A stretch of 20,424 bases of DNA from a virus. Each line of letters begins with the position of its first letter. Positions within the stretch are counted from its first letter, which is position 1. Shown here piece by piece: positions 298-18,830 of this stretch. The notes below the pieces were generated by a model. That model did no database searches. It was not told the DNA's origin and saw only the letters and a program-made list of their open reading frames with translations. Made by a program: the position numbers and the translations under genes. The DNA lies in UHGV virus genome UHGV-0172319; one strand, written 5' to 3'.

Positions 298-612
298 TTA
301 TTTCACTGCCTCACCTGAGATACGTTTCATTGCCTCTGTCACCACCTCAGCGGCAGCAGGGCGATCACGGTCAGGTTTAACAGCCACATCAGCGAGGTAT
401 TTAGCCAGAAGCTGAGTTCTTTTCTTTTCCTCATCAAGCCGCTCACGCTCTTCTTTTCGCTTCGCGTAGTAGGTCTTAATAGTGAAATAGGCCGAGATCA
501 GTGCGCCGAGAATAAAAACATAATCCTGCAAACTCAGAACGGAGAAGAAACCAAGCAGCCCTGACCACCAGTACGGCAAGTTATGTCCATCGGTTGGGTT
601 CATACGTTGCAT
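298..612 (-). CDS. Holin (two predicted TM segments, pinholin-like) with dual-start motif
   Basis: 104 aa; N-terminus MQRM (two in-frame Met separated by Gln-Arg, the classic antiholin/holin dual start); two hydrophobic stretches (LPYWWSGLLGFFSVLSL, YVFILGALISAYFTI) then a charged tail; sits immediately upstream of the endolysin. Confidence 0.7.
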   Translation of the reverse strand: MQRMNPTDGHNLPYWWSGLLGFFSVLSLQDYVFILGALISAYFTIKTYYAKRKEERERLDEEKKRTQLLAKYLADVAVKPDRDRPAAAEVVTEAMKRISGEAVK

Positions 613-746: not shown

Positions 747-1799
747 TTATGTCTTATTCAGTTCGCGGATTTCTTCCACAGTCTGAATAAACCTTTCTGT
801 TTCCAGCTCAACACCGATTGCCCGTCGCCCCAGCGTCATAGCCGCTTTAATGGTTGAACCGGATCCCATGAAGAAATCAGCCACAACATCACCCGGCCTG
901 CTGCTGGCGTTGATGATCTGCTGCAACATGTCTGCTGGCTTTTCGCATGGGTGTTTGCCGGGATAGAACTGAACCGGCTTATGCGTCCAGACATCGGTGA
1001 AAGGAACAGAGACTGAAACAGAAAAGAATCGCCGGAGAGACTTATACTCTTCCAGCAATTCTGAATACTTTCGGTTCAACGAATGCCACGTGGCCACCAG
1101 CTGGTGGTGTGGTGTGTCGAGCTCATTGTTTCGATGCTTATCGAATGCAACCCTGGTGAACAATTCCTGCAGTTTCTGGTAATCCGCTTCGCCTGGCAGT
1201 TGCCATTGGGATGCACCGAACCAGTGGGACACCATGTTCTTTTTCCCGGTCGCATCGGCGATCTGCTTAGAGGAAACCCCCAGCGATTCACGCGCGTCAC
1301 GGAAGTATGAAATTAGAGGCGTCAGCACATGCTGTTTGAGCTCGTTACTTTTCTCCGCGTATCCATCACTCTTGGGCTTATATGGGCCCTGGTAATGTTC
1401 AGCGAAAAGAATGCGCTCAGTCGCAGGGAAATATGACCGCAGGCTTTCTTTGTTGCAGCCATTCCAGCGACCGGAAGGTTTTGCCCAGATGATGTGATTA
1501 AGGACACTGAACCGCTCCCGCATTATGATTTCAATATCAGACGCAAGGCGATGCCCGCAGAACAGGTAAAGGCTACCGGCGGGTTTCAGAACGCGCCAGA
1601 ACTCAGCCAGGTATCCATCAAGCCAGCGTAAAAAATCCTCGTCCCCTTTCCACTGGTTGTCCCATCCTTCAGGTTTCACCCTGAAGTAAGGTGGATCCGT
1701 AACGATAAGGTCAATGGAGTTATCAGGGAGAGAAGCGATGTAATGCAGGGAGTCAGCGTTGATTAACTCAACACTGTTTATTTTTACAGTATTTTCCAT
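747..1799 (-). CDS. Orphan DNA methyltransferase (beta-class amino-MTase, N6-adenine or N4-cytosine)
   Basis: 350 aa; motif IV DPPY near the N-terminus (LIVTDPPY) and AdoMet motif I near the C-terminus (FFMGSGST). No adjacent restriction endonuclease ORF. Confidence 0.85.
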   Translation of the reverse strand: MENTVKINSVELINADSLHYIASLPDNSIDLIVTDPPYFRVKPEGWDNQWKGDEDFLRWLDGYLAEFWRVLKPAGSLYLFCGHRLASDIEIIMRERFSVLNHIIWAKPSGRWNGCNKESLRSYFPATERILFAEHYQGPYKPKSDGYAEKSNELKQHVLTPLISYFRDARESLGVSSKQIADATGKKNMVSHWFGASQWQLPGEADYQKLQELFTRVAFDKHRNNELDTPHHQLVATWHSLNRKYSELLEEYKSLRRFFSVSVSVPFTDVWTHKPVQFYPGKHPCEKPADMLQQIINASSRPGDVVADFFMGSGSTIKAAMTLGRRAIGVELETERFIQTVEEIRELNKT

Positions 1800-2194
1800 A
1801 GATCAGTAAGCGTAACTCTGGTAGGCTCACTATGCTTTTGCGCTAAAGCAGTGGGCCCTGGTTAGCTTGTGACCTGAAAGCATGAGCTGATGGCTGGCCG
1901 GGTGCTACAACACCCACCAGCCGCCCATCTTCACAAAAAGAAAGCCCCGCTTAAACGAGGCATCAAAATCGTTTTAAGTCCGTGGCGTAGAAACCACTCT
2001 TAACACAGTAATACATAAAATGCGGACCGCGTGAGGAAAACAATGGTTTTTTTTAATCCATTGAGTAAAATCAATGCCACTTTGCACACATGTTATCCAC
2101 ACAGTGTGCTTGCAAATTCTCATTTATTTTTTTGAATTTTGTAAATGCTCTAATTTATGGGCTTTTTTTACCGATAGCATCTAAACACTTGTGT

Positions 2195-2253: not shown

Positions 2254-3249
2254 ATGTTTGAGCAGCGGAAAGCTTTGTATGCGCAACTGGAACAAGCACG
2301 CAGTTCAAAAGTATTATGCTATGTAACTGGTGACAGACCAAACCAAGAAGCTCAAATCAGCGCTGATGTATTTGATCTTTTCGTTAACCATTTAGATGTG
2401 ATCGGTGACGTTCAAAAAATTAGTCTTGTGCTCTATACGCGAGGCGGCGACACTTTGACTGCATGGAGCCTTGTAAACCTGCTTCGTCAGTTTTGTAAAG
2501 AACTCGAAATCATAATCCCATCCAAATGTCATAGCTCTGGGACGATCATGTGTCTTGGCGCTAACAATTTGGTTATGACAAAGCAGGCAACCTTAGGTCC
2601 AATCGATCCGAGTGTGAATACACCACTCAACCCTTCGGCCATTATCAATGGGCAGCAACTTCAACTTCCAGTCAGTGTTGAAGAAATCAATGGTTATCTT
2701 GAAGTAGTTAAGCATGATTTGAGTATCAAGGATGATGCCTCACTTGCGCAGATCCTCCTTGCATTAAGTGAAAAGGTTCACCCACTAGTGCTTGGTAAAG
2801 TCTATCGAGCTAAATCGCAGATTCAAATGCTCGCAAGAAAACTACTTTCTCACCAACTCACTGATAGTGAAAGCATTGAGAAAATTGTAAGTTTCCTTTG
2901 TAGTGATTCTGGTAGCCATGACTACACTATAAACAGGATTGAGGCAGTAAACGATTTAGGTCTTACTGTGGAAAAACCAGATGAGCAACTTTACGGCCTG
3001 ATCAAAGAAATTTATGAAGATTTCAAAACTGAGATGCATCTGGGTGAACCTTTTGACCCAAATGCTATCTTAGGAACAGTTAACCAAGCATCGTATGTAT
3101 CTGTTAGAAGCATTTTAGAGGCTCCAGATACATTTTCATATCAATTCCGCACTGAGGGCATGTTACAGCGTTTGCAAACTCCAGGTGTCCCAAGTCAGTT
3201 CGGAATAAATCATAACCTTATCTCAGAAGGATGGGCTCAACATGGATAA
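2254..3249 (+). CDS. SDH-family / ClpP-crotonase-fold serine protease-like protein (moron gene)
   Basis: 331 aa; N-terminal half has the ClpP/SppA-like pattern (LYTRGGDTLTAWSLVNLL..PSKCHSSGTIMCLGANNLVM..LGPIDP); good RBS (AAGGA, 8 nt spacing); clearly lower GC than flanking phage genes; opposite strand to the late operon. Confidence 0.65.
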   Translation: MFEQRKALYAQLEQARSSKVLCYVTGDRPNQEAQISADVFDLFVNHLDVIGDVQKISLVLYTRGGDTLTAWSLVNLLRQFCKELEIIIPSKCHSSGTIMCLGANNLVMTKQATLGPIDPSVNTPLNPSAIINGQQLQLPVSVEEINGYLEVVKHDLSIKDDASLAQILLALSEKVHPLVLGKVYRAKSQIQMLARKLLSHQLTDSESIEKIVSFLCSDSGSHDYTINRIEAVNDLGLTVEKPDEQLYGLIKEIYEDFKTEMHLGEPFDPNAILGTVNQASYVSVRSILEAPDTFSYQFRTEGMLQRLQTPGVPSQFGINHNLISEGWAQHG

Positions 3250-3424
3250 CAAATCATCTACAGGAAACTTTGTCGTCTATACGAATAGGCATACAAATAC
3301 AGCAGCGCCTAAGACAGCAAGCACCCCATCTACTGCTCAAAAAGTTAGTAATAATGGTGTGAATGGCTACAGTAACTTTTTAAGTTGCACAACAGGTTCG
3401 GCCATAAAAAACAGTTTCTAAAAG

Positions 3425-3455
3425 CAACGGCTCATAATGAGCCGTTGTTGTTTCT
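3425..3455. terminator. Bidirectional rho-independent terminator between convergent protease gene and Q
   Basis: Perfect palindrome CAACGGCTCAT..ATGAGCCGTTG (3425-3447) followed by TTGTTTCT on + strand and preceded by an A-tract (T-tract on - strand). Confidence 0.55.
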
Positions 3456-3834
3456 ACTCACATTCTAAACGTATTTCGAGCATGCTAAGGCAACCATCGA
3501 TAAATCCCTCTGCCATCTGGATCTCGATGCGTATCAATTTTTCATCCTTCTTGCGCATTCTCGCTATCTTACGCTTAGAAATGCCATACAAATAATGCGC
3601 TACCAGTAGTGAATGCTCATAAGGCTTTCGCTTCTGAAGTCGGGCTAAGCAACCTTCTATAATAAGGGCATCATCATCGGTGCATGAAAGACGAGTTTTG
3701 CTTGTCTGAGGAAGAATCCCTTTAAAGCCAGCCGCAATAGGTGAGTAATCGACTCCTGAACTATCACTCGCTGCCCAACCACCCCAGCGCTCTAATACCA
3801 TCTGAATATCCCGCATGTAATCTCCACTGTTCAT
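3454..3834 (-). CDS. Late-gene antiterminator Q (QuuD / phage-82-type Q family)
   Basis: Core sequence MRDIQMVLERWGGWAA...IAAGFKG...LVAHYLYG...IQMAEGFIDGCLSMLEIRLE matches the lambdoid Q/QuuD family. Start at 3834 overlaps the upstream stop (ATGA); alternative start at 3816 gives MRDIQ. The longer track ORF to 3954 would overlap the upstream gene and is unlikely. Confidence 0.75.
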   Translation of the reverse strand: MNSGDYMRDIQMVLERWGGWAASDSSGVDYSPIAAGFKGILPQTSKTRLSCTDDDALIIEGCLARLQKRKPYEHSLLVAHYLYGISKRKIARMRKKDEKLIRIEIQMAEGFIDGCLSMLEIRLECE

Positions 3835-4820
3835 GCAAGCACGCCAATAGCAAGCGCGCGATCGATAAAACGAAATATCAACTCCAGCTGCGAGCCGTAT
3901 TTCTCTTCGAATACCACGGTATCCGCATGTAACTCGTCGTGATGCTTTCTGCACAAAGGCAACACCCAGAGGTCATGCGCTTTTGTCCCCATGCCGCCCT
4001 GACCGTGACCTATCAGGTGGTGCGGATCATCAGCCTGCTTACCACAGCAGGCGCACGGCTGGGCCTTCACCCATCGCGTGTATTTCTCATTTTCCCAGCG
4101 TCGGCGCTTCGGGCGTAGCATGAAGCTTTCCGGCGATTCCGGATCAATCCTGAGTGTCAGTACCTTTTTCGCCTTCTCCTGCACAATGCTGGTGGCCGGT
4201 AACGAGGGCACAATATCGCTTTCTCGCATGATGGATTTCGGCTCTTCATCCGGTAGTCGCAGCGCTTTATGTGCAACGCTTTCCGGTATCACGTCACCCA
4301 GATCATTTCTGACCATCCACCAGCACAACTCCGGGAGAGTCAGAACATGCGACTCAGAGAAACCTAAATCTGTTCGAATGACTGACAAAATCCAGGATAC
4401 CAGGTTTTTGCTGGCTATACCTGCAAGCTGTTCCGTGTATTGACCAGCGAGAGTGTGATCGCAGTGCCAGCACAGCCGGATGCTACCAGGCTGATGGTGC
4501 ATTATCGTGAAATTCTTGTCGTGCCATGTTGAATGGGGCCACTGGCATTCGAACTTTTTGTTTAACCAGCCATCAAGCGAAGACAATCCACCAGCGCGCT
4601 GAATAACGCGCTGATTTTCAAATATTCCACTCATTACCGGATCGTCTGCCAGTGGTTGAACCGCTGCCGGCACATGACCAGTATTGTAAGAGGCCATGCT
4701 TTCCGGTTCTGGCTCAAGTAAGACCCGACCGCGCATGAATAGCGGCATCAGTTCAGCACCGGGACGGAAAAGCACAACCCCCATTCGGTGGGCTATTTCA
4801 GGAGTTAACAACGCTCTCAC
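3831..4820 (-). CDS. DUF968-family protein (YdfU-like nin-region protein) with C-terminal Cys/His-rich motif
   Basis: 329 aa; C-terminal CACCGKQADDPHHLIGHGQGGMGTKAHDLWVLPLCRKHHDELH is typical of prophage DUF968 proteins; conserved position upstream of Q. Confidence 0.7.
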   Translation of the reverse strand: MRALLTPEIAHRMGVVLFRPGAELMPLFMRGRVLLEPEPESMASYNTGHVPAAVQPLADDPVMSGIFENQRVIQRAGGLSSLDGWLNKKFECQWPHSTWHDKNFTIMHHQPGSIRLCWHCDHTLAGQYTEQLAGIASKNLVSWILSVIRTDLGFSESHVLTLPELCWWMVRNDLGDVIPESVAHKALRLPDEEPKSIMRESDIVPSLPATSIVQEKAKKVLTLRIDPESPESFMLRPKRRRWENEKYTRWVKAQPCACCGKQADDPHHLIGHGQGGMGTKAHDLWVLPLCRKHHDELHADTVVFEEKYGSQLELIFRFIDRALAIGVLA

Positions 4821-4827
4821 AGCAACC

Positions 4828-5739
4828 TCACCCGACCAGATCGATAAGCTTCATCATCTCAGCAAATTTTGACTCGAAGAAATGTGGCTGAGTCTCGCGC
4901 GGGTTTGCTGGACTGGTAATGTTTTTCCCAAACAGACAGCCTTTCGCAGTAAGCGACCAGAACTTTTTAACTCCATTGATACCTGAACGGCTCTGGCGCT
5001 GTTTCTGCTCAACAATCCCCTGCCGGGACATCATGTGATAGACCTGATTGGCAGTGATCCGGAGATTATTAGCCTTGAGGAGGGCGCTTAGTGATTGCGT
5101 AGGTCGACTAGACCCGTCCTGTGCGCCTGCTGGTGCATCAATTGCATAGTGCGGCATCAGGTCTGGCAGGCCAGCAACTTGCTGCAGTTTGTGGTACGCC
5201 CCAAGCTTTGATGAATTTGAGAGGTTCAGCATTTTGGCGGCTGATTCGAGCAGGATAATACCGGCCTGAATTTTATCTGAAGTTTGTGAATGCGAAGCCG
5301 CATTCTGAGCAGCATCGAACGTTCTGATGACCTTAAGGTTAAAGGATGGGCTAATCCACATTGCATAGGCGTAAACAAGCTCTTTGCAGACGTAGGTTCC
5401 TCCGTTACGCCCCTGAATTGTCATCACCGGAATACTACGGGAATTTCCCGTAGTTTCTTTTTCCAACAATTCCACCAACGCCTGGGTTTCTGGACGCCGC
5501 ATGAACTCATGGACTTCCATTGAACGAGCGGATCGCTTTTCGCCTGAAGCGTTAAGCGCTGCTTTTTGCAGATCGTTAAGACAGTAATTGGATTCAAAAT
5601 ATTGACGTACGGAAACGCCATCAATTACAAGTAACTGATTCATTGTTTTCTCCACTGTTTTAGTGCGAAGGGGACTGCACTCCCGTTTCGCTTGCACCGG
5701 ATAACCATACCCTGAATTACCCATGTTTTGCTCTAGCAA
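4828..5739 (-). CDS. KilA-N domain protein (Rha/antirepressor-like nin-region protein)
   Basis: KilA-N-like segment (...GRNGGTYVCKELVYAYAMWISPSFNLKVIRTF...). RBS GAGGA precedes ATG at 5739; alternative start at 5643 (GGAG RBS) gives 271 aa. Confidence 0.6.
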   Translation of the reverse strand: MLEQNMGNSGYGYPVQAKRECSPLRTKTVEKTMNQLLVIDGVSVRQYFESNYCLNDLQKAALNASGEKRSARSMEVHEFMRRPETQALVELLEKETTGNSRSIPVMTIQGRNGGTYVCKELVYAYAMWISPSFNLKVIRTFDAAQNAASHSQTSDKIQAGIILLESAAKMLNLSNSSKLGAYHKLQQVAGLPDLMPHYAIDAPAGAQDGSSRPTQSLSALLKANNLRITANQVYHMMSRQGIVEQKQRQSRSGINGVKKFWSLTAKGCLFGKNITSPANPRETQPHFFESKFAEMMKLIDLVG

Positions 5740-6119
5740 GATGATATTTTTTCCTCAAATTTCTTGATCGAGATCTCTACTCTTCCCCCTTTCACTACTG
5801 GCCCCCACTCCACCAGCATTCTTTTCACCTGGCTGTCGTCCTCCCAGATCCCCGCGTGGGTAAGAGCGTCGAACAGCGCTTTGTTGTAGTTATCCAGATC
5901 CCGGATCCGGTTGTCCGGTGGGAACAGGATTATTTCAACAGCCGCCGGTGACGATGACGGCTTCGGGAGCATGCGCAGTTGTTCAATGATTGCCGCACAT
6001 GCTGACGACTGGAACTGGCGACCTTTGGCACTTATCAGGTGACGTCCCGCCAGCGGCCCCTTATTCGGGGCGCGCCAGTACGTGTTCACACTCGGAGGAA
6101 ACGGCAGCACCAGTTTCAT
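5733..6119 (-). CDS. rusA: Holliday-junction resolvase RusA
   Basis: 128 aa; start region and core (PPSVNTYWR...RDLDNYNKALFDALTHAGIWEDDSQV...KGGRVEISI) align with E. coli RusA, including the catalytic Asp-rich segment. Confidence 0.85.
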   Translation of the reverse strand: MKLVLPFPPSVNTYWRAPNKGPLAGRHLISAKGRQFQSSACAAIIEQLRMLPKPSSSPAAVEIILFPPDNRIRDLDNYNKALFDALTHAGIWEDDSQVKRMLVEWGPVVKGGRVEISIKKFEEKISSC

Positions 6120-6439
6120 ACCGTGATCCCCTTGTTTTTGAGATAGGCGATTGCGCGGTCCTTCGCACCATCCTCACCATTCACAAGCGCATGCAGCAGG
6201 GAATCTGCATCAGCAACGTTCTCCAGATCGTTGATGGCTATTCCCCGCGAAACGCCACGCGTCAGGGTGATAGCCCCTTTCCTCTCCAGCGCGCGCAGAT
6301 GATCCGCAGCAGCATTTGGGGAGCTGCATCCCAGCAGCCCCGAAAGTTCTGTATTGGTTGGAGGATAGCCATGCTCGCGTTGAAAGCTGATCAAGGTCTC
6401 CAGTACATGCTGCTGGCGAGCCGTGAGAATTTCTTTCAC
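6116..6439 (-). CDS. LexA N-terminal DNA-binding-domain-like protein (winged HTH, no S24 peptidase domain)
   Basis: 107 aa; LTARQQHVLETL...PPTNTELSGLLGCSSPNAAADHLRALERKGAITLTRGVSRGI parallels the LexA DNA-binding domain; no Ser/Lys peptidase region follows. Confidence 0.6.
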   Translation of the reverse strand: MKEILTARQQHVLETLISFQREHGYPPTNTELSGLLGCSSPNAAADHLRALERKGAITLTRGVSRGIAINDLENVADADSLLHALVNGEDGAKDRAIAYLKNKGITV

Positions 6440-7314
6440 GCGCTTTCCTCCAGAATGTTGACCATCTGAGCAGAAGCAACGGCAATGATCTCGCTGGTGG
6501 GCATACGTTCAAGCCATAGCTGATTGATATTGTCTTTCAGCTTGTTCTGCTGTGACTCAGTCAGGGCGTCAACGCCATCCACCTGGTTAAACACCAGACC
6601 AACCTCGAGAGGCCAGATACGCGATTCGACTTCTGGTAATGTCAGCGGCGCAGGTGGCTGTACTGTTTCTGCCTGGCGGGTCTTACCAGCGGCAAATGTG
6701 ACCAGCGACATAAACGCCTTCCCTTTTTCCTCCAGATCGGTACGGCTGATGTAGCTGAAACGCTCGCCGCGCCATGACTTATCGAAGATTGCAATGGCGC
6801 CAGCAAAGAAAGCACCTGTGGGTTTCTGCTTATCGTCAGCAGGAACAAACCACACAGGGAGATCGAAACCAATGCGACCGCGAATAAACATGATGTGATC
6901 GGCATCTTCAGGCCACCATGTTTCACTTGTCGCCGCTTTAATGAGGAACACGTAACGCCCCCCCTTTTCACGCATCTCCATTGTGTGATCCATGATGTGG
7001 GTCATGCCGGTGATCGCCTGCTTCTCGTGGTACTGAGAGCGGCTATAGGGTGGATTACCGAATGCGGCCCCGCCGATTGATTCCAGCATTTCCGACCAAT
7101 CCTGCATCAACGCGTTATCTTCGGCGGTGTACCAGACCGGGCACTTCGCGTTATCGTCGTCAGCAAACAGATCCAGAACCAACGGCCCAAATATTGAGTT
7201 GATCCCCCAAAACAACAGATCCGGAGTACACCATTGATCACCAACCTCTTTCAGTTCATGGGCTGGTTTGCTTCGCAGTGAGGCCAGCGCCAGGCTGTAG
7301 GAACTAATATTCAT
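6436..7314 (-). CDS. Phage Dam-family N6-adenine DNA methyltransferase with C-terminal extension
   Basis: 292 aa; motif IV NPPY (AAFGNPPYS) in the N-terminal half; about 100 aa C-terminal extension of unknown function; 4-bp overlap with the upstream replication gene. Confidence 0.7.
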   Translation of the reverse strand: MNISSYSLALASLRSKPAHELKEVGDQWCTPDLLFWGINSIFGPLVLDLFADDDNAKCPVWYTAEDNALMQDWSEMLESIGGAAFGNPPYSRSQYHEKQAITGMTHIMDHTMEMREKGGRYVFLIKAATSETWWPEDADHIMFIRGRIGFDLPVWFVPADDKQKPTGAFFAGAIAIFDKSWRGERFSYISRTDLEEKGKAFMSLVTFAAGKTRQAETVQPPAPLTLPEVESRIWPLEVGLVFNQVDGVDALTESQQNKLKDNINQLWLERMPTSEIIAVASAQMVNILEESA

Positions 7315-8351
7315 GATGACACTCCTTTCCCTGCCTCAGTTGACCAGATGTTGTTCCACCCAAACTGCGCCAGACCGTGGTTATAGCCTTTTGCCTTCAG
7401 CCCATCACGATCAGCTTTTGCACGGACCAATACTTCAACTTCGCTTTTCGGCTCGTTATTAGCTTCAAGGTCATGGTATCGACGCCAGGCAAGATCACGC
7501 TCAGCGGTATCAACACCAGCGTCCTGGCTGTAGCCATTCAGTTGCGTGGCCTGTCTTTTTGTCTTATTCCAGTCTTCTCTGGCTGGTCGCCCACGGCTTT
7601 CCCAGCGCGTGGCACTCTGCAGATAGCCTTCGAACTTCTTCGGGCCGAACAGCGTTTCAGGGCGCATGTACTGGTACTGCTCATCGTTGCCGTGCCAGTG
7701 CTCGTGTTTCAGGTCGATAACCAGTTGCAGGTCAGCAACGCTGTAACCTTCACGCAGACGAGCACGAATGTTTTCCAGCGAGGTTTTTGATTTCTGAAAG
7801 CGGGAGCCGCTGACCTGGTTCAAATGGGTTAAAACAAGAATGGCGTTATCGGTGATCACAACTTCAGGGTCTGGTTGCGACGCAACCGGACAAGAAGGTT
7901 TTTTACCTGATGGATCAGTAGTTGAATTTACTGACGGATCCCCGCCAGATTCTGACGGGTGAAAACCGCAATTCTGACCGGATTTTGACGCATCAAATTT
8001 TGACGGGTCAGATTTTGATGCGTCAGATTTTGACGGGTCAGAATCTGACAGGTGAGCGAATGCAACTGTCTGGAGTTTTGCCACATTCAACTGATAAACA
8101 TTGGAGGCATTTCGGTTGCCCTGTCGCCGCGCTTTGCGTGACAACCAGCCATCGGCTTCAAGCTTCGCTATTGCCGTTCTGACAGTGCTGACGCCTGCGC
8201 CAAGCTGGCGCGCGATTGTTTCAATGGAAGGCCAGCAGACACCTTCGTCATTGCTGAAATCAGCCAGGCGCGCCATAATAGCCACGCTGGATAACTTCAT
8301 TCCTGACGCTGCACAGGCATCCCATACATAGCCTGTCAATTTAGTGCTCAT
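7311..8351 (-). CDS. Phage replication initiation protein (replisome organizer, O-like) with N-terminal HTH and internal repeat region
   Basis: 346 aa; N-terminal winged-HTH-like segment; central peptide repeats (SDSDPSKSDASKSDPSKFDASKS) encoded by DNA iterons; position after cro/cII matches lambda O / P22 gene 18. Confidence 0.7.
   Translation of the reverse strand: MSTKLTGYVWDACAASGMKLSSVAIMARLADFSNDEGVCWPSIETIARQLGAGVSTVRTAIAKLEADGWLSRKARRQGNRNASNVYQLNVAKLQTVAFAHLSDSDPSKSDASKSDPSKFDASKSGQNCGFHPSESGGDPSVNSTTDPSGKKPSCPVASQPDPEVVITDNAILVLTHLNQVSGSRFQKSKTSLENIRARLREGYSVADLQLVIDLKHEHWHGNDEQYQYMRPETLFGPKKFEGYLQSATRWESRGRPAREDWNKTKRQATQLNGYSQDAGVDTAERDLAWRRYHDLEANNEPKSEVEVLVRAKADRDGLKAKGYNHGLAQFGWNNIWSTEAGKGVSS
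7948..8051. repeat. Iteron array (about 7 tandem copies of a roughly 12-15 bp unit, consensus approx. TCAGATTTTGACGG); candidate replication origin inside the replication gene
   Basis: Direct tandem repeats read in sequence (tctgacggg / attctgaccg / gattttgacgc / aattttgacggg / tcagattttgatgc / gtcagattttgacggg / tcagaatctgacagg). Confidence 0.6.
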
Positions 8352-8755: not shown

Positions 8756-9220
8756 TCACTTCTTTTGACGACGACTGAATAACGCCACAATCGCGCGAAT
8801 TTCTTCTTCACGTGCAGCCAGATGACGTCGGTGATGTTCCTGAATCTCTTCGGCTTCATGTTTTTCAATCACCCCATCCTCAAGTGCTTTCTGGATAATT
8901 TGATCCACCTGCCCTCTTGCAGCTGCTGTACGCATTGCTCGACTGAACAAGTCAACACGGTCTAGATCTTCCAGGCTTGGCAAGTCCACCAGAAGTGCTC
9001 CGCGGCGCTTGGCAAAGTAGTCAGCAACAAATGACGTATTAGAAATGTCTTCCATCGCTTCCAGTTCAGTTACTTCAAAGAACCGGCATCCGTTTTTCTC
9101 GTACAGGTTGTTGTTGAACTGGGTTTCTGACATGCCTAACGCACCAGCCATAGCCTGACGGCCTCCGGGGTACGCCTTGCACATCGCTTTCACTACTTCT
9201 TTCAAGGTTTGCTCTACCAT
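8756..9220 (-). CDS. CII-like early regulatory protein (putative)
   Basis: 154 aa from ATG at 9220 with RBS AAGGA; located immediately downstream of cro as lambda cII / P22 c1 is. The longer ORF start at 9289 would overlap cro. Confidence 0.5.
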   Translation of the reverse strand: MVEQTLKEVVKAMCKAYPGGRQAMAGALGMSETQFNNNLYEKNGCRFFEVTELEAMEDISNTSFVADYFAKRRGALLVDLPSLEDLDRVDLFSRAMRTAAARGQVDQIIQKALEDGVIEKHEAEEIQEHHRRHLAAREEEIRAIVALFSRRQKK

Positions 9221-9245
9221 CTTGTTTTTCCTTTGGTAGTTACTT

Positions 9246-9443
9246 TTACGCTGCTGAATCTGTAGCCTTCTGGTAAAGAGCAGCGTCATATTTCAATTTG
9301 CCTTTTGTGATTCGTTCGATCACGAAGGCCTGTTTCTCTGGAATGACTTCACCCCACCTGCAAACTGCCGGGTGAGAAATACCGAGCGCATATGCGGTTT
9401 TGGATACACCGCCAAAATGCTCAAGAACTTCTGATTTACGCAT
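9246..9443 (-). CDS. cro: Cro-like repressor (P22 Cro family)
   Basis: 65 aa; VLEHFGGVSKTAYALGISHPAVCRWGEVIPEKQAF...KGKLKYD resembles P22 Cro (as recalled from memory, not searched); divergent from cI; RBS GGAGGG. Confidence 0.8.
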   Translation of the reverse strand: MRKSEVLEHFGGVSKTAYALGISHPAVCRWGEVIPEKQAFVIERITKGKLKYDAALYQKATDSAA

Positions 9444-9538
9444 GTTCCCTCCTAGTTAACCTACGCCCTAAAGGTAACAAAAGGTACATTAAATAGCAAA
9501 CAACAGTTACAGGAAAACAATGTAACATTCGTTACATG
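9444..9538. promoter_or_regulatory. OR-like immunity operator/promoter region between divergent cro and cI
   Basis: Contains operator copy GGTAACAAAAGGTACATT (9473-9490) and a related inverted element TGTAACATTCGTTACATG (9521-9538) overlapping the cI start; several GTAAC/GTTAC hexamers. Confidence 0.65.
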
Positions 9539-10198
9539 AAAACAGAGATGAAAGACCGAATCAGATCAAGGCGTGTACAGCTCGATATAACGCAGCAGAC
9601 CCTAGCTAAAAAGCTGGGGGTTAGCCGTGTATCTGTAACAAAATGGGAAAGCGGAACCACAAAACCAGATGGAGAGAACCTTCATCAGTTAGCGCTGGCT
9701 CTGCAAACCACCCCAGAATGGATTCTTTATGGTCAGGGCGATGATGAAAAAGTTGATGACACAAAATTAGTGCCATACTTAAAAACACCAACCGCCGTCC
9801 CAATTATTTCTGCTGTTCAGGCAGGCCTGTGGACTGATACCTATGCATGCTCAAGGCTGACTGATGTGATTTCCTGGACTCAAACAACTGCTAATGTTTC
9901 TGACGAAGTTTTTGGTCTTGTCGTTCGCGGCGAATCGATGACAAACCCACATGGACTCCCTTCAATACCTGAAGGCTCTATCGTAATCGTTGAACCACAC
10001 TATGGTCAGCTAGATGACCTTTATGGGAAGATCGTAGTTGCAGTTCTGGATGGCTCTGCTGAAGCTACGGTGAAAAAGTTAGTATGGGATAGCCCTTATG
10101 CCTATCTCATGCCACTAAATCCAGTGTTTAAACCCATTCAGATTGATGGAAATTGCAGAATCGTTGGAAAGGTTGTTCAGATTACGCAAAACCTATAG
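9536..10198 (+). CDS. cI: CI-type prophage repressor (N-terminal HTH plus C-terminal S24 LexA-like autopeptidase domain)
   Basis: 220 aa; HTH (LDITQQTLAKKLGVSRVSVTKWESG); C-terminal VVRGESM (Ser nucleophile) and TVKKL (Lys) as in lambda CI/LexA; divergent from cro. Confidence 0.9.
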   Translation: MKTEMKDRIRSRRVQLDITQQTLAKKLGVSRVSVTKWESGTTKPDGENLHQLALALQTTPEWILYGQGDDEKVDDTKLVPYLKTPTAVPIISAVQAGLWTDTYACSRLTDVISWTQTTANVSDEVFGLVVRGESMTNPHGLPSIPEGSIVIVEPHYGQLDDLYGKIVVAVLDGSAEATVKKLVWDSPYAYLMPLNPVFKPIQIDGNCRIVGKVVQITQNL

Positions 10199-12882: not shown

Positions 12883-13133
12883 CCGTATTCGAATACGTCC
12901 AGGCCTATCCCAATACCACCAGCAGCGATATTGCTAAAGCGCTGCACAGAAGGACACCTGTCGTGGCCGGCGCACTATCGCAACTCTACACCACTGGCCA
13001 CATCGTAAAAACTGGCGTTCGTGGTGGCGCACCAACTTACCGCGTTAACGATCTGCCATTCGGCTGCAGTAATCCTCTGACGCTAATGTTCAACCAGCTT
13101 TTACAGGCAGTTCGCCGGGAGGCAGCCCAATGA
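12879..13133 (+). CDS. Hypothetical small protein (84 aa, possible winged-helix)
   Basis: ORF with coupled start; overlaps the downstream PAPS-reductase-family gene by 4 nt. Confidence 0.5.
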   Translation: MTVFEYVQAYPNTTSSDIAKALHRRTPVVAGALSQLYTTGHIVKTGVRGGAPTYRVNDLPFGCSNPLTLMFNQLLQAVRREAAQ

Positions 13134-14155
13134 GCAACATTGACCAGCGCTGCCTTGCAAAAAACACCTTCAATTTAATTTCCATGTCCGGTGGGAAGGA
13201 CTCTCTCGCACAATGTCTGTACGCAGTAGAGAACGGCGTGCAGCACGAGCGGGTGTTTGCTGACACTGGTCACGAACACCCACAAACGATGGAGTACCTC
13301 GATTACCTGGAACAAAAGCTGGGTCCGATTCGCTGTGTAAAAGCCGACTTTACTCGTCAGATCGAGGGTAAGCGTAAATTCATTGCAGAAAAATGGCCGG
13401 TCTCCCTCGTTGAAGAATGTGGGATGTCTCAAGATGAAGCGGCGGAGCGCATTGCAAAAGCCTTAGAAATCCTCCACCCAACCGGTAATCCATTTCTTGA
13501 CCTGTGCATGTGGAAAGGCCGATTTCCGAGCACAAAGGCGCGGTTCTGCACGTTCGACCTTAAACATGAGCCTGTACGCACTCAGGTGGTGCTGCCGGCA
13601 CTTGATGAATATGACGAGGTTATCAGCTGGCAGGGTGTACGCGCCCAGGAATCGCCAGCGCGGGCCGGCCTGCCAATGTGGGAAGAAGATGCAGACAATA
13701 CGCCTGGCCTGCACGTCTATCGTCCGATCCTCAACTGGCTGCATGAGGATGTATTCGCCATTGCTAAACGCCACGGTATTAAACCTAACCCACTCTACCA
13801 GCAGGGATGCAGCCGGGTTGGGTGTATGCCGTGTATTCATGCTCGTAAATCTGAACTGGCAGAAATTTTCCAGCGCTGGCCGGAGGAAATCGCCAGGGTG
13901 GCGGAGTGGGAGCGATTCGTTGCGGCCTGCTCCCGCCGTGGAAATTCTACCTTCTTCCCGTCGACTCATGACCCACGAAGGGCGGAACGTCGCATAGACG
14001 TTATCACTGTTGACGGTTACGGGATTGAAACCTATCGAGACTGGGCAATGACCACTCGCGGGGGGCGCAATTTGATTTACTGGCCGCTGCGAACGATAAA
14101 TCCGTGTGCAGCAGTATTTATGCGGGGGTGTGCGAATGAACGAAAAACTACTTGA
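13130..14155 (+). CDS. PAPS-reductase-family PP-loop ATP pyrophosphatase-like protein
   Basis: 341 aa; PP-loop motif SMSGGKDS near the N-terminus; Cys-rich C-terminal region (GCSRVGCMPC); RBS GGAGG. Confidence 0.8.
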   Translation: MSNIDQRCLAKNTFNLISMSGGKDSLAQCLYAVENGVQHERVFADTGHEHPQTMEYLDYLEQKLGPIRCVKADFTRQIEGKRKFIAEKWPVSLVEECGMSQDEAAERIAKALEILHPTGNPFLDLCMWKGRFPSTKARFCTFDLKHEPVRTQVVLPALDEYDEVISWQGVRAQESPARAGLPMWEEDADNTPGLHVYRPILNWLHEDVFAIAKRHGIKPNPLYQQGCSRVGCMPCIHARKSELAEIFQRWPEEIARVAEWERFVAACSRRGNSTFFPSTHDPRRAERRIDVITVDGYGIETYRDWAMTTRGGRNLIYWPLRTINPCAAVFMRGCANERKTT

Positions 14156-14634: not shown

Positions 14635-15813
14635 ATGGCGGCAAGGCCAAGAAAAAAAGAATACCGACATCTGCCGGACTATCTGGTATTTGATAAAGAT
14701 CGAGGTGTTTATAAATTCACACTTATTACCGGGAAGAAGAAAAATATAGGTAAGGATCGGGCCATAGCAATAGCTATCGCTAGAGAGTACAACCTGAGAA
14801 TGAGACCTGAGCTTTCCCCGTCGGTTGATAATCTCATTAGAGAATCTGGTGGGGCTACTGGAGAAGCCAAACCATTTGCTGAACATGTGGATCACATAAT
14901 GGAACGTGCTATTGAGGACGAGCGCCCTTCTCAGAGCACCCTGGATGACTGGAATAATGACGCACTACGCGTAAAAGAGTTTTTCGTTAATGTTCCTGCC
15001 TGCGATATCGAGTTGGAGCATGTTAACGCATACATCAATCAATACCATGCCGGCGCGTCTGCGAACGTGCAAAACAGAAAAGTCAGCTTCCTTAAAAAGC
15101 TGTTTTCGTATGCGGTCGATGAATCCCTGATGCTCGATAATCCGGCAACCCGGAAGAAAATGCGCAGGACCGAAGAGAAGAAAAGACAACGCCTGTCTCT
15201 CGATCATTTCATGGCTATCCGGCGCGCTGCAGCACCATGGTTAAGAACGGCAATGGACCTGGCTCTACAGACGACACATGCGCGCCTCGAAGTATCGAGG
15301 ATCCGTTATTCAATTCGCGAACCCAAAAACGGTATATGTGGTTGTGTCTGGCTCGATCAGCCAGAGAACGGTATCTATGGAACACTATACATACACCGCC
15401 AAAAGGTACAGAAGAAGGAGGCGTCGCACGTTGCGATCCCCATAGGTGATGAGTTAAAACGCATCATTGATGATAGCCGGGATAATGTGGCCAGCCCGTA
15501 TGTTGTTCACCGGATCCCAGAACGGCAGGTAAAACGGAGTAAAGAGGTTTCGCATCCCACCCAGGTGGCCCCGGACTATTTAAGCCGCTCATTCTCTGCA
15601 GTACGCGACAAGCTCGGGTTATGCAATCACCTCGCTATGGATGAAAGACCTACCTTCCATGAAATACGCGCGTTGGCTGCTCACTTGTTTAATCAACAGG
15701 GTATCGATCCACAAGGACGAATGGCGCACAGTGATGCCAAGTCAACGAAGATTTATACCCAAAACCATATTGATTGGGTCGTTGTTCCTCATGGAGAAAT
15801 TTTAACGGCATAA
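14635..15813 (+). CDS. int: Tyrosine integrase (lambda Int family)
   Basis: 392 aa; C-terminal catalytic-region motifs (HEIRALAAHL; IYTQNH with putative Tyr nucleophile); N-terminal arm-binding-like domain; position after xis. Confidence 0.9.
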   Translation: MAARPRKKEYRHLPDYLVFDKDRGVYKFTLITGKKKNIGKDRAIAIAIAREYNLRMRPELSPSVDNLIRESGGATGEAKPFAEHVDHIMERAIEDERPSQSTLDDWNNDALRVKEFFVNVPACDIELEHVNAYINQYHAGASANVQNRKVSFLKKLFSYAVDESLMLDNPATRKKMRRTEEKKRQRLSLDHFMAIRRAAAPWLRTAMDLALQTTHARLEVSRIRYSIREPKNGICGCVWLDQPENGIYGTLYIHRQKVQKKEASHVAIPIGDELKRIIDDSRDNVASPYVVHRIPERQVKRSKEVSHPTQVAPDYLSRSFSAVRDKLGLCNHLAMDERPTFHEIRALAAHLFNQQGIDPQGRMAHSDAKSTKIYTQNHIDWVVVPHGEILTA

Positions 15814-16123
15814 GAAAAGGCACCAACAGGTGCCTTGAAATTGAGCTTTTTAACAACGAACTAAGAATGCCCATGCCTCATACCCATAATCATGAGCATC
15901 AAGGACTTTTGCGGATTTTCCACGTACCTTGCGGTAACGGCAGAAAACCCAGCGGAAACCTTTTGGTGCCGCTTTTGAAACGATTGATTTCAAACCCATT
16001 CATAAAACACCTCCTTACCAAGAGAGATTTTTCCCTTGAACATCTTCCCTGAAGGTGTTAGTTTCAGGCTGTCTATTGAAGCTGTTCACGGTGGTGATGC
16101 CTCTCGGATTCATCACCTAAATA

Positions 16124-16159
16124 CCCCTTGCATTGGTTGGCGCCAAGCAAGGGGTTTTT
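16124..16159. terminator. Bidirectional terminator between convergent int and ImmA-like gene
   Basis: CCCCTTGC..GCAAGGGG stem (16124-16154) followed by TTTTT; a second hairpin AAGGCACC..GGTGCCTT sits just after the int stop (15817-15837). Confidence 0.5.
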
Positions 16160-16679
16160 ACATTTTGTCTAACTGATAACGTGCGGCCACTAATGATACT
16201 CCGCATGCCTCAGCAACATTTTCAGCACCCATCCCTTTTAAAACATTGGCATGAATAGCTGGCACTAATAACTCACCACTAAAACATTTAGCTTGCCACT
16301 CACTACTCTCAAAAGGGCGGATTTTAACCCCTGGAGCAGAACGAGCAAAAGCTATGTTCCTGTGCATGAGAAGATGGCCCAACTCATGCGCGGCAGTCAT
16401 CCTGTCACGACCAACCCCATTCAAAGCACCTTCGTAGATGTCTTCGCGCAGAATTAATAAATGTTCCTGCGGGTACGTAAGTCCATGCGTCTCCCCCATT
16501 TCTTTCATCCCGCCGATGTGGAGTTCAAAATCAGGGATCAACTGAGGCAATGCGAACTCAATTACCTCCATAACAGGAAACTTCAGACCTGTAATACCGA
16601 AGGTGCTCCGCAGAGATCTGACGATCGAACGTATTGATTCACGATTCTGCGGGGGTACTCGATAATCTTGTCCGCTCAA
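16158..16679 (-). CDS. ImmA/IrrE-family zinc metallopeptidase (COG2856-like)
   Basis: 173 aa; HEXXH motif (AAHELGHLLMH); apparent TTG start preceded by a strong AGGAGG RBS; directly downstream of the XRE HTH gene. Confidence 0.8.
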   Translation of the reverse strand: MSGQDYRVPPQNRESIRSIVRSLRSTFGITGLKFPVMEVIEFALPQLIPDFELHIGGMKEMGETHGLTYPQEHLLILREDIYEGALNGVGRDRMTAAHELGHLLMHRNIAFARSAPGVKIRPFESSEWQAKCFSGELLVPAIHANVLKGMGAENVAEACGVSLVAARYQLDKM

Positions 16680-16687
16680 ACTGCCTC

Positions 16688-17047
16688 CTACTGCTGTTTT
16701 CGATTCAAAATCTGTCGTAAATTCCGGAAGTCTTCTTCGTTTAACTCATCAAAACTACGAGCGAACGCAATTGCGACTTCACGAGCGTGGTCGTTCTTAC
16801 CTGACAAGCTGATCTCTACTGATTGCTGAGAGTCACGAGCTGCACTGATAAGCTTTTCTTTTTGTTTTTCATCCGCATTAAGATAGCCAATGATGCTATC
16901 AAGCACGGGTTTAGTGACCGCCCTTTTACCAGTTTCGATTGCTGAAAGATAAGACGAGGTCATACCCATAGCCTCAGCCATGCTTTTAAGCGTAAGCCCC
17001 AGGTCTATGCGCATTTTTCTTACTGTCTTACCAAACGGCGTTAACAT
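16688..17047 (-). CDS. XRE-family helix-turn-helix transcriptional regulator
   Basis: HTH segment (LGLTLKSMAEAMGMTSSYLSAIETGKR); ATG at 17047 with GGAG RBS (the track ORF's TTG at 17080 is less likely); forms an operon with the ImmA-like gene. Confidence 0.8.
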   Translation of the reverse strand: MLTPFGKTVRKMRIDLGLTLKSMAEAMGMTSSYLSAIETGKRAVTKPVLDSIIGYLNADEKQKEKLISAARDSQQSVEISLSGKNDHAREVAIAFARSFDELNEEDFRNLRQILNRKQQ

Positions 17048-17121
17048 ATGTTGTATCTCCAGTGTGTCAAAGACCCCCAATACTCTCGGGTCTCATTTTA
17101 AGTTAACACGCTCCAGACATG

Positions 17122-17145
17122 AAATCAACTAAATTTTGTTGATTT
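17122..17145. promoter_or_regulatory. Perfect palindrome AAATCAAC-N8-GTTGATTT upstream of the XRE/ImmA operon; candidate operator
   Basis: 8-bp perfect inverted arms read in sequence, about 75-100 bp upstream of the XRE start in an AT-rich promoter region. Confidence 0.45.
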
Positions 17146-17343
17146 GTTTTATCTGACTTAGTTAATGAGTTTTTCATGTTCTGTTGATAGAACCTTTAGC
17201 TGAGTGAAGATATATGGGGAAATATGGGATATAAGTCTTTGATGTACAACACACACATTTTGCGAAAAATGCACTGTTTGTTTATACATACGAATGGTTA
17301 GCAACAGCAGACATGGAGCGACTTGCAGAGCTTTCGAAGCGGT

Positions 17344-17391
17344 GTCATGGGGTGTCGGGGGTCGGAGGTTCAAATCCTCTCGTGCCGACCA
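17344..17391 (+). other. 3' fragment (about 48 nt: anticodon-loop region, T-arm, acceptor 3' strand, CCA) of a tRNA-Pro(GGG)-like gene, with no matching 5' half; candidate att core
   Basis: GTCATGGGGTGTCGGGGGTCGGAGGTTCAAATCCTCTCGTGCCGACCA has the T-loop GGTTCAAATCC and acceptor CGTGCCGACCA; matches enterobacterial proL as recalled from memory; no complementary CGGCACG acceptor 5' strand upstream. Confidence 0.6.
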
Positions 17392-17401
17392 AAATTCCCC
17401 A

Positions 17402-17433
17402 GAAAAACCAGCCTTTTACGGCTGGTTTTTTTA
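17402..17433 (+). terminator. Rho-independent terminator directly after the tRNA fragment
   Basis: CCAGCC..GGCTGG stem followed by TTTTTTT. Confidence 0.6.
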
Positions 17434-17523
17434 TTATTGCCGTCCACCGAAATGGAATTCGATTCGAGTTATGGACGGAAATAATGTTACACTTCCGGTT
17501 TTGCACAGCCGATCTTATTGCTT

Positions 17524-17886
17524 ATGTGGCATCACTTCATCAAGTACACCTCCGTAGGCGTGATCAACACATTGATTCACTGGATAGTTTTTGCTATCTG
17601 CATCTACGCCTTTCATACCCATCAGGCGCTGGCGAATTTCCTGGGCTTCAGTGTGGCGGTCAGTTTTTCTTTTTACGCCAACGCCCGGTTTACCTTTAAG
17701 CAATCGACCACAACGCGTCGCTATCTGCTGTATGTCGGCTTTATGGGCCTGCTCAGTATCCTGACGGGTTGGGGGGCCGAACAGTGCGGTTTCCCACCGC
17801 TGGTGACGCTGGTCGCGTTCTCCGCCATTAGTCTCATTTGTGGCTTTATTTATTCCAGATTCATTGTATTCAAGGACGCACGATGA
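17524..17886 (+). CDS. gtrA: GtrA, bactoprenol-linked glucose flippase (O-antigen glucosylation)
   Basis: 120 aa from ATG 17524; small polytopic membrane protein ([14 protein letters not shown]..., ...[18 protein letters not shown]) closely resembling P22/SfV GtrA as recalled. Confidence 0.85.
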
Positions 17887-18830
17887 AAATTTCACTGGTC
17901 GTTCCTGTCTTCAACGAAGAAGAAACCATTGGCCTCTTTTACAAGACGGTGCGTGAATACGACGCACTGAAAGAACATGATGTCGAAATTGTGTTCATCA
18001 ACGATGGTAGCACCGACGCAACGGAATCCATCATCAACGCCCTCGCCGTCGCCGACCCACTCGTTGTTCCGCTCTCGTTTACGCGAAATTTTGGTAAAGA
18101 ACCGGCGCTGCTCGCCGGGCTCGACAATGCCAGTGGCGATGCCGTCATTCCGATGGATGTCGATCTCCAGGATCCTGTCGAAGTCCTGCCGCACTTGATT
18201 CAAAAATGGCAGGATGGGGCGGACATCGTGCTGGCTAAGCGTTCCGATCGCTCCGTCGATAGCCGCCTGAAGCGAAAATCCGCCGAGTGGTTTTATAAGC
18301 TACACAATAAAATCAGCACGCCGCATATCGAAGAAAACGTCGGCGATTTTCGGCTGATGAGTCGTGAAGTGGTGGACAACATTAAACAAATGCCAGAACG
18401 AAATCTGTTCATGAAAGGGATTTTATCCTGGGTTGGCGGCAAAACTGACATCGTCCTCTACGCGCGCGCCACTCGCTGTGCCGGGAAAAGTAAATTCAAC
18501 GGCTGGAAACTGTGGAACCTTGCACTGGAAGGGATCACCTCTTTTTCTACCTTCCCTCTGCGTATCTGGACCTACATTGGTCTGGCGGTTGCCCTGCTTT
18601 CTTTCACCTACGGTGCAGGAATGGTGATAGATACGCTTCTGTGGGGAAATCCCGTGCGTGGCTATTCTTCCTTGATTGTGTCAATCCTGTTTCTGGGAGG
18701 CGTACAGCTTATTGGCATTGGCGTGCTGGGTGAGTATATCGGACGAATCTATGTCGAGACCAAGCAGCGGCCTCGATACATTCTGAAAAAACGTAAAACT
18801 GTGGACCACGATTCAGACAAGGATAACTGA
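17883..18830 (+). CDS. gtrB: GtrB, bactoprenol glucosyltransferase (GT2 family)
   Basis: 315 aa; [13 protein letters not shown]... with DxD-type region (PMDVDLQD); C-terminal TM helices; start overlaps gtrA stop (ATGA). Confidence 0.9.

Follow-up and report, generated by a model that had tools for sequence, protein, structure and literature searches.

Two stand-alone N6-adenine methyltransferases of an SfV-like temperate phage and an apparently undescribed conserved RNA leader upstream of the late-region gene

The closest described relatives of the two methyltransferases discussed here belong to two distinct families of orphan enzymes. M.EcoGII, which together with M.EcoGI comes from prophages of E. 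coli O104:H4 C227-11, is a non-specific adenine methyltransferase that modifies DNA in any context and is also active on RNA; its gene, carried by a prophage, stays silent during lysogeny, and its constitutive expression harms the cell (PMC5778455). The enzyme behaves as a dimer. Its nearest relative with site specificity, M.PflMI, shares only 27% identity with it, and reconstructed ancestors that lie deeper than the late-region enzyme described below are still non-site-specific (PMC11551740). In the phage Dam family, the characterized members M.EcoT1Dam and M.Btr190III methylate GATC, and M.Btr190III shows notable off-target activity (PMC4996451). The genomes of STEC reportedly encode several prophage orphan methyltransferases each, including homologs of M.EcoGI/II and of phage Dam (PMC6602927), and a comparative study regards the methylase of the replication module as accessory, with SfII and SfV having it and SfIV lacking it (PMC3851460).

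Here we analyze the two methyltransferase genes, denoted MT1 and MT2, that are encoded in a 20,424-nucleotide stretch of DNA from the virus genome UHGV-0172319 (hereafter, the window). The listing of open reading frames and the family scans reveal a lambdoid-style temperate phage segment, and the window is part of an SfV/ST64B/phiNP-like temperate phage that covers the early, nin-equivalent and late-leader segment. Nucleotide similarity to phiNP, ST64B, SfV/SfIV, cdtI and Stx2c phages is patchy, in the range of 75-84% (megablast). The features outside the MT1 leader region are the following, with the minus-strand genes given in their order from cro to the holin gene:

9246-9443, minus strand: cro (family scan)
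8756-9289, minus strand: CII-like gene
7311-8351, minus strand: O-like replication initiator (PF09524 and HTH_36), its stop overlapping the MT2 start by 4 nt
6436-7314, minus strand: MT2, Dam-family methyltransferase of 292 amino acids (PF05869 and TIGR01712), catalytic domain at about 6718-7260
6439-6621, minus strand: three-helix module of MT2, residues ~232-292
6116-6439, minus strand: LexA-DNA-binding-domain protein (PF01726), its start overlapping the MT2 stop by 4 nt
5733-6119, minus strand: RusA
4828-5739, minus strand: KilA-N protein
3831-4820, minus strand: DUF968/HNH gene
3454-3954, minus strand: antiterminator Q (PF06530, 179 bits), likely start at 3816, giving 120 amino acids
2254-3421, opposite-strand reading: low-GC insert of ~1.2 kb between Q and the MT1 leader
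747-1799, minus strand: MT1, beta-class methyltransferase of 350 amino acids (PF01555)
298-612, minus strand: holin, the first lysis gene downstream of MT1 (phrog_1350, E = 4e-33)
9536-10198, plus strand: cI
Plus strand: DUF2303 gene and dNMP-phosphatase-like gene
13130-14155, plus strand: PAPS-reductase-like gene
14635-15813, plus strand: integrase
17838-20374, plus strand: gtr-like glycosyltransferase genes

The gene callers applied to identical contigs also call Q as a protein of 120 amino acids, and in the source contig the holin gene is followed by a lysozyme gene. In agreement with the original prediction, MT1 is located upstream of the lysis genes, and MT2 lies in the nin-equivalent region, surrounded by the genes from the replication initiator to Q. 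The window shows no avoidance of GATC, with 101 sites compared to 101.8 expected.

This layout is that of the SfV-type phages (SfV, phiNP, cdtI and the Stx2c-converting phages), which share with the window the order rep-dam-LexA-like-RusA-KilA-HNH/DUF968-Q-...-methyltransferase-holin. The rep-dam-LexA-like-RusA portion is common to the window and SfV, where the LexA-like gene after dam is orf42, and SfV further resembles the window in its serotype-converting style, with gtr-like genes beside int. The two phages also differ in several respects: the SfV Dam protein consists of 217 amino acids and lacks the C-terminal module that is present in the 292-amino-acid MT2; the gap between Q and the late methyltransferase is occupied by the small orf47 in SfV and by a 331-amino-acid opposite-strand insert in the window; and the Q proteins are of different types.

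MT1 is encoded by an uninterrupted open reading frame on the minus strand, and its product of 350 amino acids is nearly the same length as M.EcoGII (349 amino acids). It matches the N6_N4_Mtase profile PF01555 with 150.3 bits (cutoff 26.7) and, like M.EcoGII and M.EcoGI, contains the motifs in the beta-class order, that is, DPPY at residue 35, a central TRD, and FMGSG (FxGxG) at residue 310, as originally predicted. The profile, which has 221 positions, is stretched over residues 29-337, and this implies an insert of about 100 amino acids. In a full-length alignment with M.EcoGII that includes only 2 gap positions, 271 of 348 residues (~78%) are identical; the reference sequence was taken from the machine-read supplement text of PMC11551740, which contains a few obvious duplications and small errors. 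Identity amounts to 86% in the N-terminal catalytic region, 70% in the central four-helix TRD (residues 135-259 of M.EcoGII) and 75% in the C-terminal part, so that MT1 differs from M.EcoGII in 22% of its residues overall and in 30% within the TRD, and the activity of MT1 is a prediction from sequence. Given this identity, the much lower identity (27%) of the site-specific kin, and the lack of site specificity in deeper ancestors, MT1 is most likely a sequence-independent m6A writer without a target motif. The expectation that MT1 and MT2 have different specificities is plausible, but an MT1 motif that could be predicted from REBASE, as also suggested originally, is unlikely given the similarity to a non-specific enzyme.

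Among other phage enzymes, MT1 is 86% identical to the phiNP protein annotated as 'dam' and 78-79% identical to the methylases of phiP27 and Stx2a phages. Identical proteins are encoded in the 30-kb contig JAWDZH010000010.1 of GCA_032476215.1 and in three metagenome contigs, with the local gene order kept. The host is not E. coli, in contrast to that of M.EcoGII: the best genome matches, from Trabulsiella, Mixta, Enterobacter and Citrobacter, do not exceed 85%. We detected 157 relatives of MT1 in GTDB contigs with one genome per species, in Enterobacter, Citrobacter, Klebsiella, Kluyvera, Mixta, Erwinia, Yersinia, Providencia, Photorhabdus and Xenorhabdus. The position of these genes is constant, after Q and before the lysis genes. 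MT1 itself is located between Q and the holin gene, as are its counterparts in SfV (Q, terminator, orf47, orf48, terminator, S), phiNP (Q, small ORF, 'dam', holin) and phiP27 (Q, methyltransferase, tRNAs, stx2e, holin). The coding sequences of both MT1 and MT2 are under purifying selection or deeply conserved.

MT2, also an uninterrupted open reading frame on the minus strand, encodes 292 amino acids. The protein scores 148.1 bits against PF05869 (cutoff 28.1, residues 19-199) and 204.8 bits against the equivalog model TIGR01712 'phage_N6A_met' (cutoff 97.05). Its NPPY motif (residue 87) and the SAM motif DLFA (residue 48) are invariant in 37 homologs. On these signatures MT2 is a member of the T1/HP1 phage Dam family, in which NPPY is likewise preceded by a D-x-F-A SAM motif and the enzymes are small, without a recognizable TRD. 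Together with the alignment of MT1 to M.EcoGII, this bears out the original assignment of MT2 as a Dam-family NPPY enzyme and the integrity of the catalytic motifs in both enzymes, the loss of which had been named as a refuting outcome. Homologs are numerous (n = 1594, the top 120 being 75-92% identical), and the form of 292-299 amino acids is abundant in prophages of Citrobacter and Salmonella (hundreds of proteins). MT2 is 83% identical to Sb44/45 of ST64B, and in a comparison restricted to the catalytic domain, its identity to SfV Dam and the Stx2c phage enzymes amounts to 72%. Identity to T1 Dam is only 27% over 146 residues, a distance at which we rejected this comparison as proof of the specificity of MT2; MT2 further differs from T1 Dam in its extra C-terminal three-helix module and in its location in a lambdoid replication module, as opposed to a virulent phage. 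No close homolog with a measured motif was found, and a sequence search of the PDB gave no matches. Most likely, MT2 targets GATC or a relaxed version of it, a family-level inference at this distance from T1 Dam. The 4-nt overlaps of MT2 with both neighboring genes point to translational coupling in an early operon. In many RefSeq records, the Dam-family gene is mislabeled 'PAPS reductase'.

The C-terminal extension of roughly 100 amino acids reported for MT2 is real: the protein continues for about 93 residues past the Pfam domain, and the total length of 292 amino acids is outside the range of the single-domain members of the Dam family (~170-240 amino acids), making MT2 a variant architecture. 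An exhaustive profile-free search of 1.84 billion proteins with residues 200-292 retrieved relatives in only 34 cluster representatives. Many of these are stand-alone proteins of 80-135 amino acids, and in others, of 297 or 439 amino acids, the module is fused to the C-terminus of a Dam-family methyltransferase; in several related loci, the catalytic domain and the module are set apart by ~170 residues of different sequence. The conserved core reads roughly WP-EV-LVF-Q-E...Q-KLK-HINRLWLE-P...II. AlphaFold models the module as a confident three-helix bundle (pLDDT 84-95); for full-length MT2, only this module is confident, and the model of the catalytic domain (mean pLDDT 41) is unusable because the alignment of 37 sequences is shallow. 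Foldseek comparison of the module with the PDB produced only generic three-helix bundles, none significant (best E = 0.4), and we found no evidence that the module is a target-recognition domain. The module is a mobile add-on.

The implication that a phage with two orphan methyltransferases is unusual did not hold up. The pair is ordinary for this phage group and already known, since the same two families are found in the same two slots of SfV (orf41 dam and orf48), with almost the same set of genes between them, and since phiNP carries both along with two further annotated methyltransferases, while both genes are also present in cdtI, in Stx2c phages and in several new E. coli and Klebsiella phage records; STEC genomes, as noted above, contain several such enzymes each (PMC6602927). 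Among 81 related loci, all retrieved through MT1 alone, 21 have a Dam-family match 4-7 kb upstream, beside the replication gene (at least 68% identity in 18 of these). The orphan status of the two enzymes was upheld: family scans detected no restriction-endonuclease-like neighbor of MT1 or MT2, and PADLOC returned methyltransferase matches only, with no restriction or defense partner. The neighbors are the holin, an SDH/ClpP-like protease ORF, the replication protein, the LexA-DBD protein and RusA. The only nuclease-like genes in the window are RusA and the DUF968/HNH gene, and the latter occurs in 44 of the 81 related loci irrespective of the presence of MT2.

The sole feature of the window that we consider to merit follow-up is an apparently undescribed conserved folded RNA immediately upstream of MT1. 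The relevant features are:

2116-2145, minus strand: weak sigma-70-like match TTTACA-18-GAGAAT, candidate late promoter (from a consensus scan only)
1944-1961, minus strand: GC-rich hairpin with T-run, intrinsic-terminator-like and tR'-like (terminator scan)
1800-1945, minus strand: structured leader directly 5' of MT1, with 136 conserved nucleotides at 1800-1935 (covariation)
~1882-1928, minus strand: 5' hairpin domain of the leader
~1801-1874, minus strand: 3' domain of the leader

The 136 nt preceding the MT1 AUG retain 85-95% identity in different genera, and the sequence further upstream differs completely. Averaged over comparisons with the 34 loci whose MT1 coding sequence exceeds 72% nucleotide identity, the value is 0.88 for the leader, 0.876 for MT1 codon positions 1 and 2, and 0.50 for position 3; the leader is as conserved as the non-synonymous codon positions of MT1. 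For an alignment of 30 sequences, RNAalifold yields a structure with 34 pairs in six helices, and double-sided compensatory changes are seen in 13 of these pairs. On this structure 95.6% of the cells are paired, compared to 27-41% when the partners are slid by 1-3 columns, and none of 500 shuffles reaches the observed values on any measure; as a single sequence, the leader folds with z = -3.0. Helix 4, which closes the 3' domain by pairing GGUCA (1874-1870) with UGAUC (1805-1801), ends 1 nt before the AUG at 1799. A covariance model of the leader matches ~61 of 82 loci immediately upstream of the methyltransferase ATG, except for one weak extra match in L002; the Photorhabdus loci yield weak partial matches at the same position. 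The leader with the start of the MT1 gene is present in 2683 of 5426 complete E. coli genomes, at up to 8 copies per genome, and the occurrence of the leader upstream of M.EcoGII-family genes, in about half of these genomes, extends across Enterobacterales. With its conserved structure, its compensatory changes and its fixed place 5' of the MT1 AUG, the leader has the generic hallmarks of a structured cis-regulatory RNA.

The leader is preceded by the terminator-like hairpin, and an equivalent hairpin of different sequence is found before the leader in most related loci. Automated detection flagged a terminator in 11 of 55 loci, an under-call caused by global folds that masked the hairpins; on visual inspection, most of the non-Providencia upstream sequences examined show a GC-rich hairpin and, after it, a U-rich stretch. 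The late promoter is not confidently placed, since promoter-like matches in this region are not above the shuffled expectation of the consensus scan. No Rfam 15 family matches the window at the gathering score, and between 1700 and 2300 only chance-level matches appear at E up to 10. A full-text literature search with strings from the leader sequence returned no paper, and a paper on the pR' regions of Stx phages mentions neither the methylase nor the leader.

Phage 5' leaders that sequester the ribosome-binding site or are processed are known, the lambda N leader, which contains an RNase III site, being one of them. The MT1 leader resembles leaders of the lambda N type in that it forms a long hairpin and base pairs the downstream initiation region within an antitermination-controlled phage operon; it differs from them in that it has no sequence or Rfam relation, in that no Shine-Dalgarno sequence is visible before MT1, and in that it is tied to M.EcoGII-family genes. 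Most likely, the leader would be an element that controls a dangerous enzyme by gating its translation or through processing. The more specific proposal, which we advance tentatively and with slightly less than even confidence, is that it represents an undescribed class of cis-acting RNA that gates translation or processing of a toxic non-specific methyltransferase by sequestering an initiation region devoid of a Shine-Dalgarno sequence. The leader might be responsive to a late-phase signal, to RNase III, or to the methyltransferase itself, the last candidate being suggested by the fact that M.EcoGII also binds and methylates RNA.

We put at roughly 75% the probability of the following reading, in which the two stand-alone N6-adenine methyltransferases of the window work at different stages, MT2 early and MT1 late; from the gene identities, motifs, synteny, conservation and RNA covariation, we infer the timing, the specificities and the protective role. 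In the early rightward operon, translation of MT2 appears to be coupled to that of the replication gene, so MT2 would be made as replication of the phage DNA starts. It could then keep the fast-replicating phage DNA methylated (at GATC or a relaxed site) where the host Dam cannot keep pace; the virion DNA of lambda and P22 is known to be undermethylated by host Dam because replication outruns that enzyme (PMC8022706). MT1, the putative first gene of the Q-dependent late operon, behind the terminator-like hairpin and the leader in which the bases preceding its start codon are paired, would be silent in the lysogen and made only after Q antitermination, shortly before packaging. The upstream layout, namely, the hairpin and the pairing within the leader of the bases before the start, hints at this silence. 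Once made, MT1 would methylate adenines in essentially any context of the progeny DNA, and DNA coated with m6A would be protected from many m6A-sensitive restriction systems in the next host; by staying silent in the lysogen, MT1 would spare the cell the toxicity that M.EcoGII is reported to have. The broad anti-restriction protection originally proposed is a reasonable expectation for MT1, and the benefit is deduced from the properties of the enzyme. Counting against this division of labor are the identity of the MT1 TRD to that of M.EcoGII (~70%), the distance of MT2 from T1 Dam (27%) and the 1.2-kb opposite-strand insert between Q and the MT1 leader, and the C-terminal module could alter the specificity or function of MT2.

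One alternative is that MT2 is not a GATC enzyme at all and that its specificity differs or is strongly relaxed, perhaps through the three-helix module. We regard this as rather unlikely, while giving it real weight: identity to T1 Dam is only 27% over 146 residues, a relative with 35% identity to T1 Dam already displays significant off-target activity, and the module is missing from SfV Dam and most of the family. However, the equivalog score of MT2 is twice the cutoff, the gene is named dam in SfV, the characterized family members are GATC enzymes, and the module also exists as a small protein of its own, which speaks against its being an integral part of target recognition. That MT1 is a site-specific orphan enzyme that has acquired its specificity is much less probable; the TRD is indeed its least conserved region, but the alignment with M.EcoGII covers the full length and has just 2 gap positions, M.EcoGII and the nearest site-specific enzyme known are only 27% identical, and ancestors more divergent than MT1 remain non-site-specific. 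Just as improbable, in our assessment, is a mainly epigenetic role of the two enzymes, as opposed to anti-restriction, in the regulation of phage or host genes, for instance, in the control of lysogeny or phase variation of the adjacent gtr-like genes, the other function that had been envisaged and in favor of which our analysis of the window yielded nothing. Phage gtr operons are known to undergo phase variation that depends on Dam (PMC2909390), and gtr-like genes are located at 17838-20374; against such a role, GATC methylation is already supplied by the host Dam, the 17081-17312 intergenic region contains no GATC cluster, and MT1 belongs to the late operon behind a terminator, its ortholog M.EcoGII being silent in lysogens.

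With respect to the leader, an alternative is that the conserved 136 nt function not as an RNA but at the DNA level, for instance, by binding a protein or by serving as a recombination 'linker' where two modules meet, or else that they form a small coding region. The leader does sit at a mosaic junction upstream of which the sequence differs completely between loci, and it contains short ORFs, for example, one encoding MGGWWVL. These explanations nevertheless seem improbable considering the compensatory changes in 13 of 34 pairs and the specificity of the register (95.6% paired as opposed to at most 41% when slid). The mini-ORFs, MGGWWVL and another of 17 amino acids, were rejected as the cause of the conservation, being conserved across loci neither in frame nor in peptide sequence, and a conserved in-frame UGA 6 nt before the AUG shows that the leader is not an N-terminal extension of MT1.

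The finding of two methyltransferases in one phage adds little to what is known, given that prophage-borne orphan adenine methyltransferases of both families, singly or as a pair, are on record for SfV, Stx phages and numerous enterobacterial genomes, and that the late-region family has a well-characterized member that is sold as a reagent. The practical correction that follows is that the late-region gene should be read as encoding a probable sequence-independent m6A writer, as opposed to a motif-bearing enzyme. The leader, if functional, could explain how a harmful methyltransferase is kept silent in thousands of lysogens, and could provide a compact regulatory part for the control of M.EcoGII-type tools.

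The M.EcoGII-like beta-class adenine methyltransferase gene of the phage (MT1) is preceded by a structured RNA leader, and an insert in the opposite orientation is located between this leader and the antiterminator gene Q:

1800-1945, minus strand: structured RNA leader, 136 nt, directly 5' of MT1, supported by conservation and compensatory changes
1944-1961, minus strand: hairpin adjoining the leader
2254-3421, plus strand: opposite-strand insert of low GC content (~40%)
3423-3449: perfect 12-bp bidirectional terminator hairpin at the end of the insert, common to Q

The leader, which is found in about half of the complete E. coli genomes, is conserved to the same degree as non-synonymous codon positions, and compensatory changes were detected in 13 of the 34 pairs of its structure. 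The AUG of MT1 is SD-less, and the bases immediately 5' of it are paired within the leader; comparison of the leader with Rfam matched no family. The insert encodes a 331-aa protein with an SDH/ClpP-like serine-protease domain along with a 59-aa ORF and looks like a lysogen-expressed moron; it gave no match with PADLOC.

The following features concern the second, Dam-family adenine methyltransferase (MT2), members of its family in other phages, and a gene of the early-left operon:

6439-6621, minus strand: C-terminal module of MT2, ~60 residues
13130-14155, plus strand: stand-alone PAPS-reductase-domain protein, 341 aa
SfV, 6959-7612: Dam-family gene bearing a reductase label
ST64B (NC_004313), ~32343-33172: Dam-family gene bearing a reductase label

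The C-terminal module is confidently predicted to form a three-helix bundle, for which fold comparison returned no informative match. Its relatives comprise only 34 cluster representatives among the 1.84 billion proteins searched, and the same module is also encoded alone, as proteins of 80-135 aa. In RefSeq phage records, including those of many Chi-like and Salmonella phages, PF05869 Dam-family methyltransferases are labelled 'phosphoadenosine phosphosulfate reductase'. This is likely a systematic mis-annotation, apparently originating from phrog_33262 of PHROG, which was built on PAPS-reductase-methyltransferase fusion proteins. The 341-aa protein, with SspD, BrxP and DndC as its top PADLOC matches, may be the product of a third gene related to DNA modification in the same phage. 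phiNP carries another adenine methyltransferase in the comparable early-left stretch.

A contiguous region includes the integrase and gtr-like genes (14635-20374):

16158-17080, minus strand: HTH protein and M78/IrrE-type metallopeptidase
17838-18830: GT2, gtr-like gene
18830-20374: DUF6056, gtr-like gene

The HTH protein and the metallopeptidase are similar to CapH/CapP, a pair of regulators found in defence systems; their genes and the gtr-like glycosyltransferase genes are divergently oriented. Integrase and gtr-like genes are thus found in one contiguous stretch, and a 340-nt gap (15814-16157) lies where attP is expected; on these grounds, the sequence may represent the circular or virion form of the phage and not an integrated prophage.

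Four methyltransferases are annotated in phiNP (6353-8080 and 15921-16652), and in one 499-aa Salmonella protein (P0001), a Dam-family domain is joined to a C5-cytosine methylase fragment. Together, these arrangements show that methyltransferase modules are often shuffled at this position.
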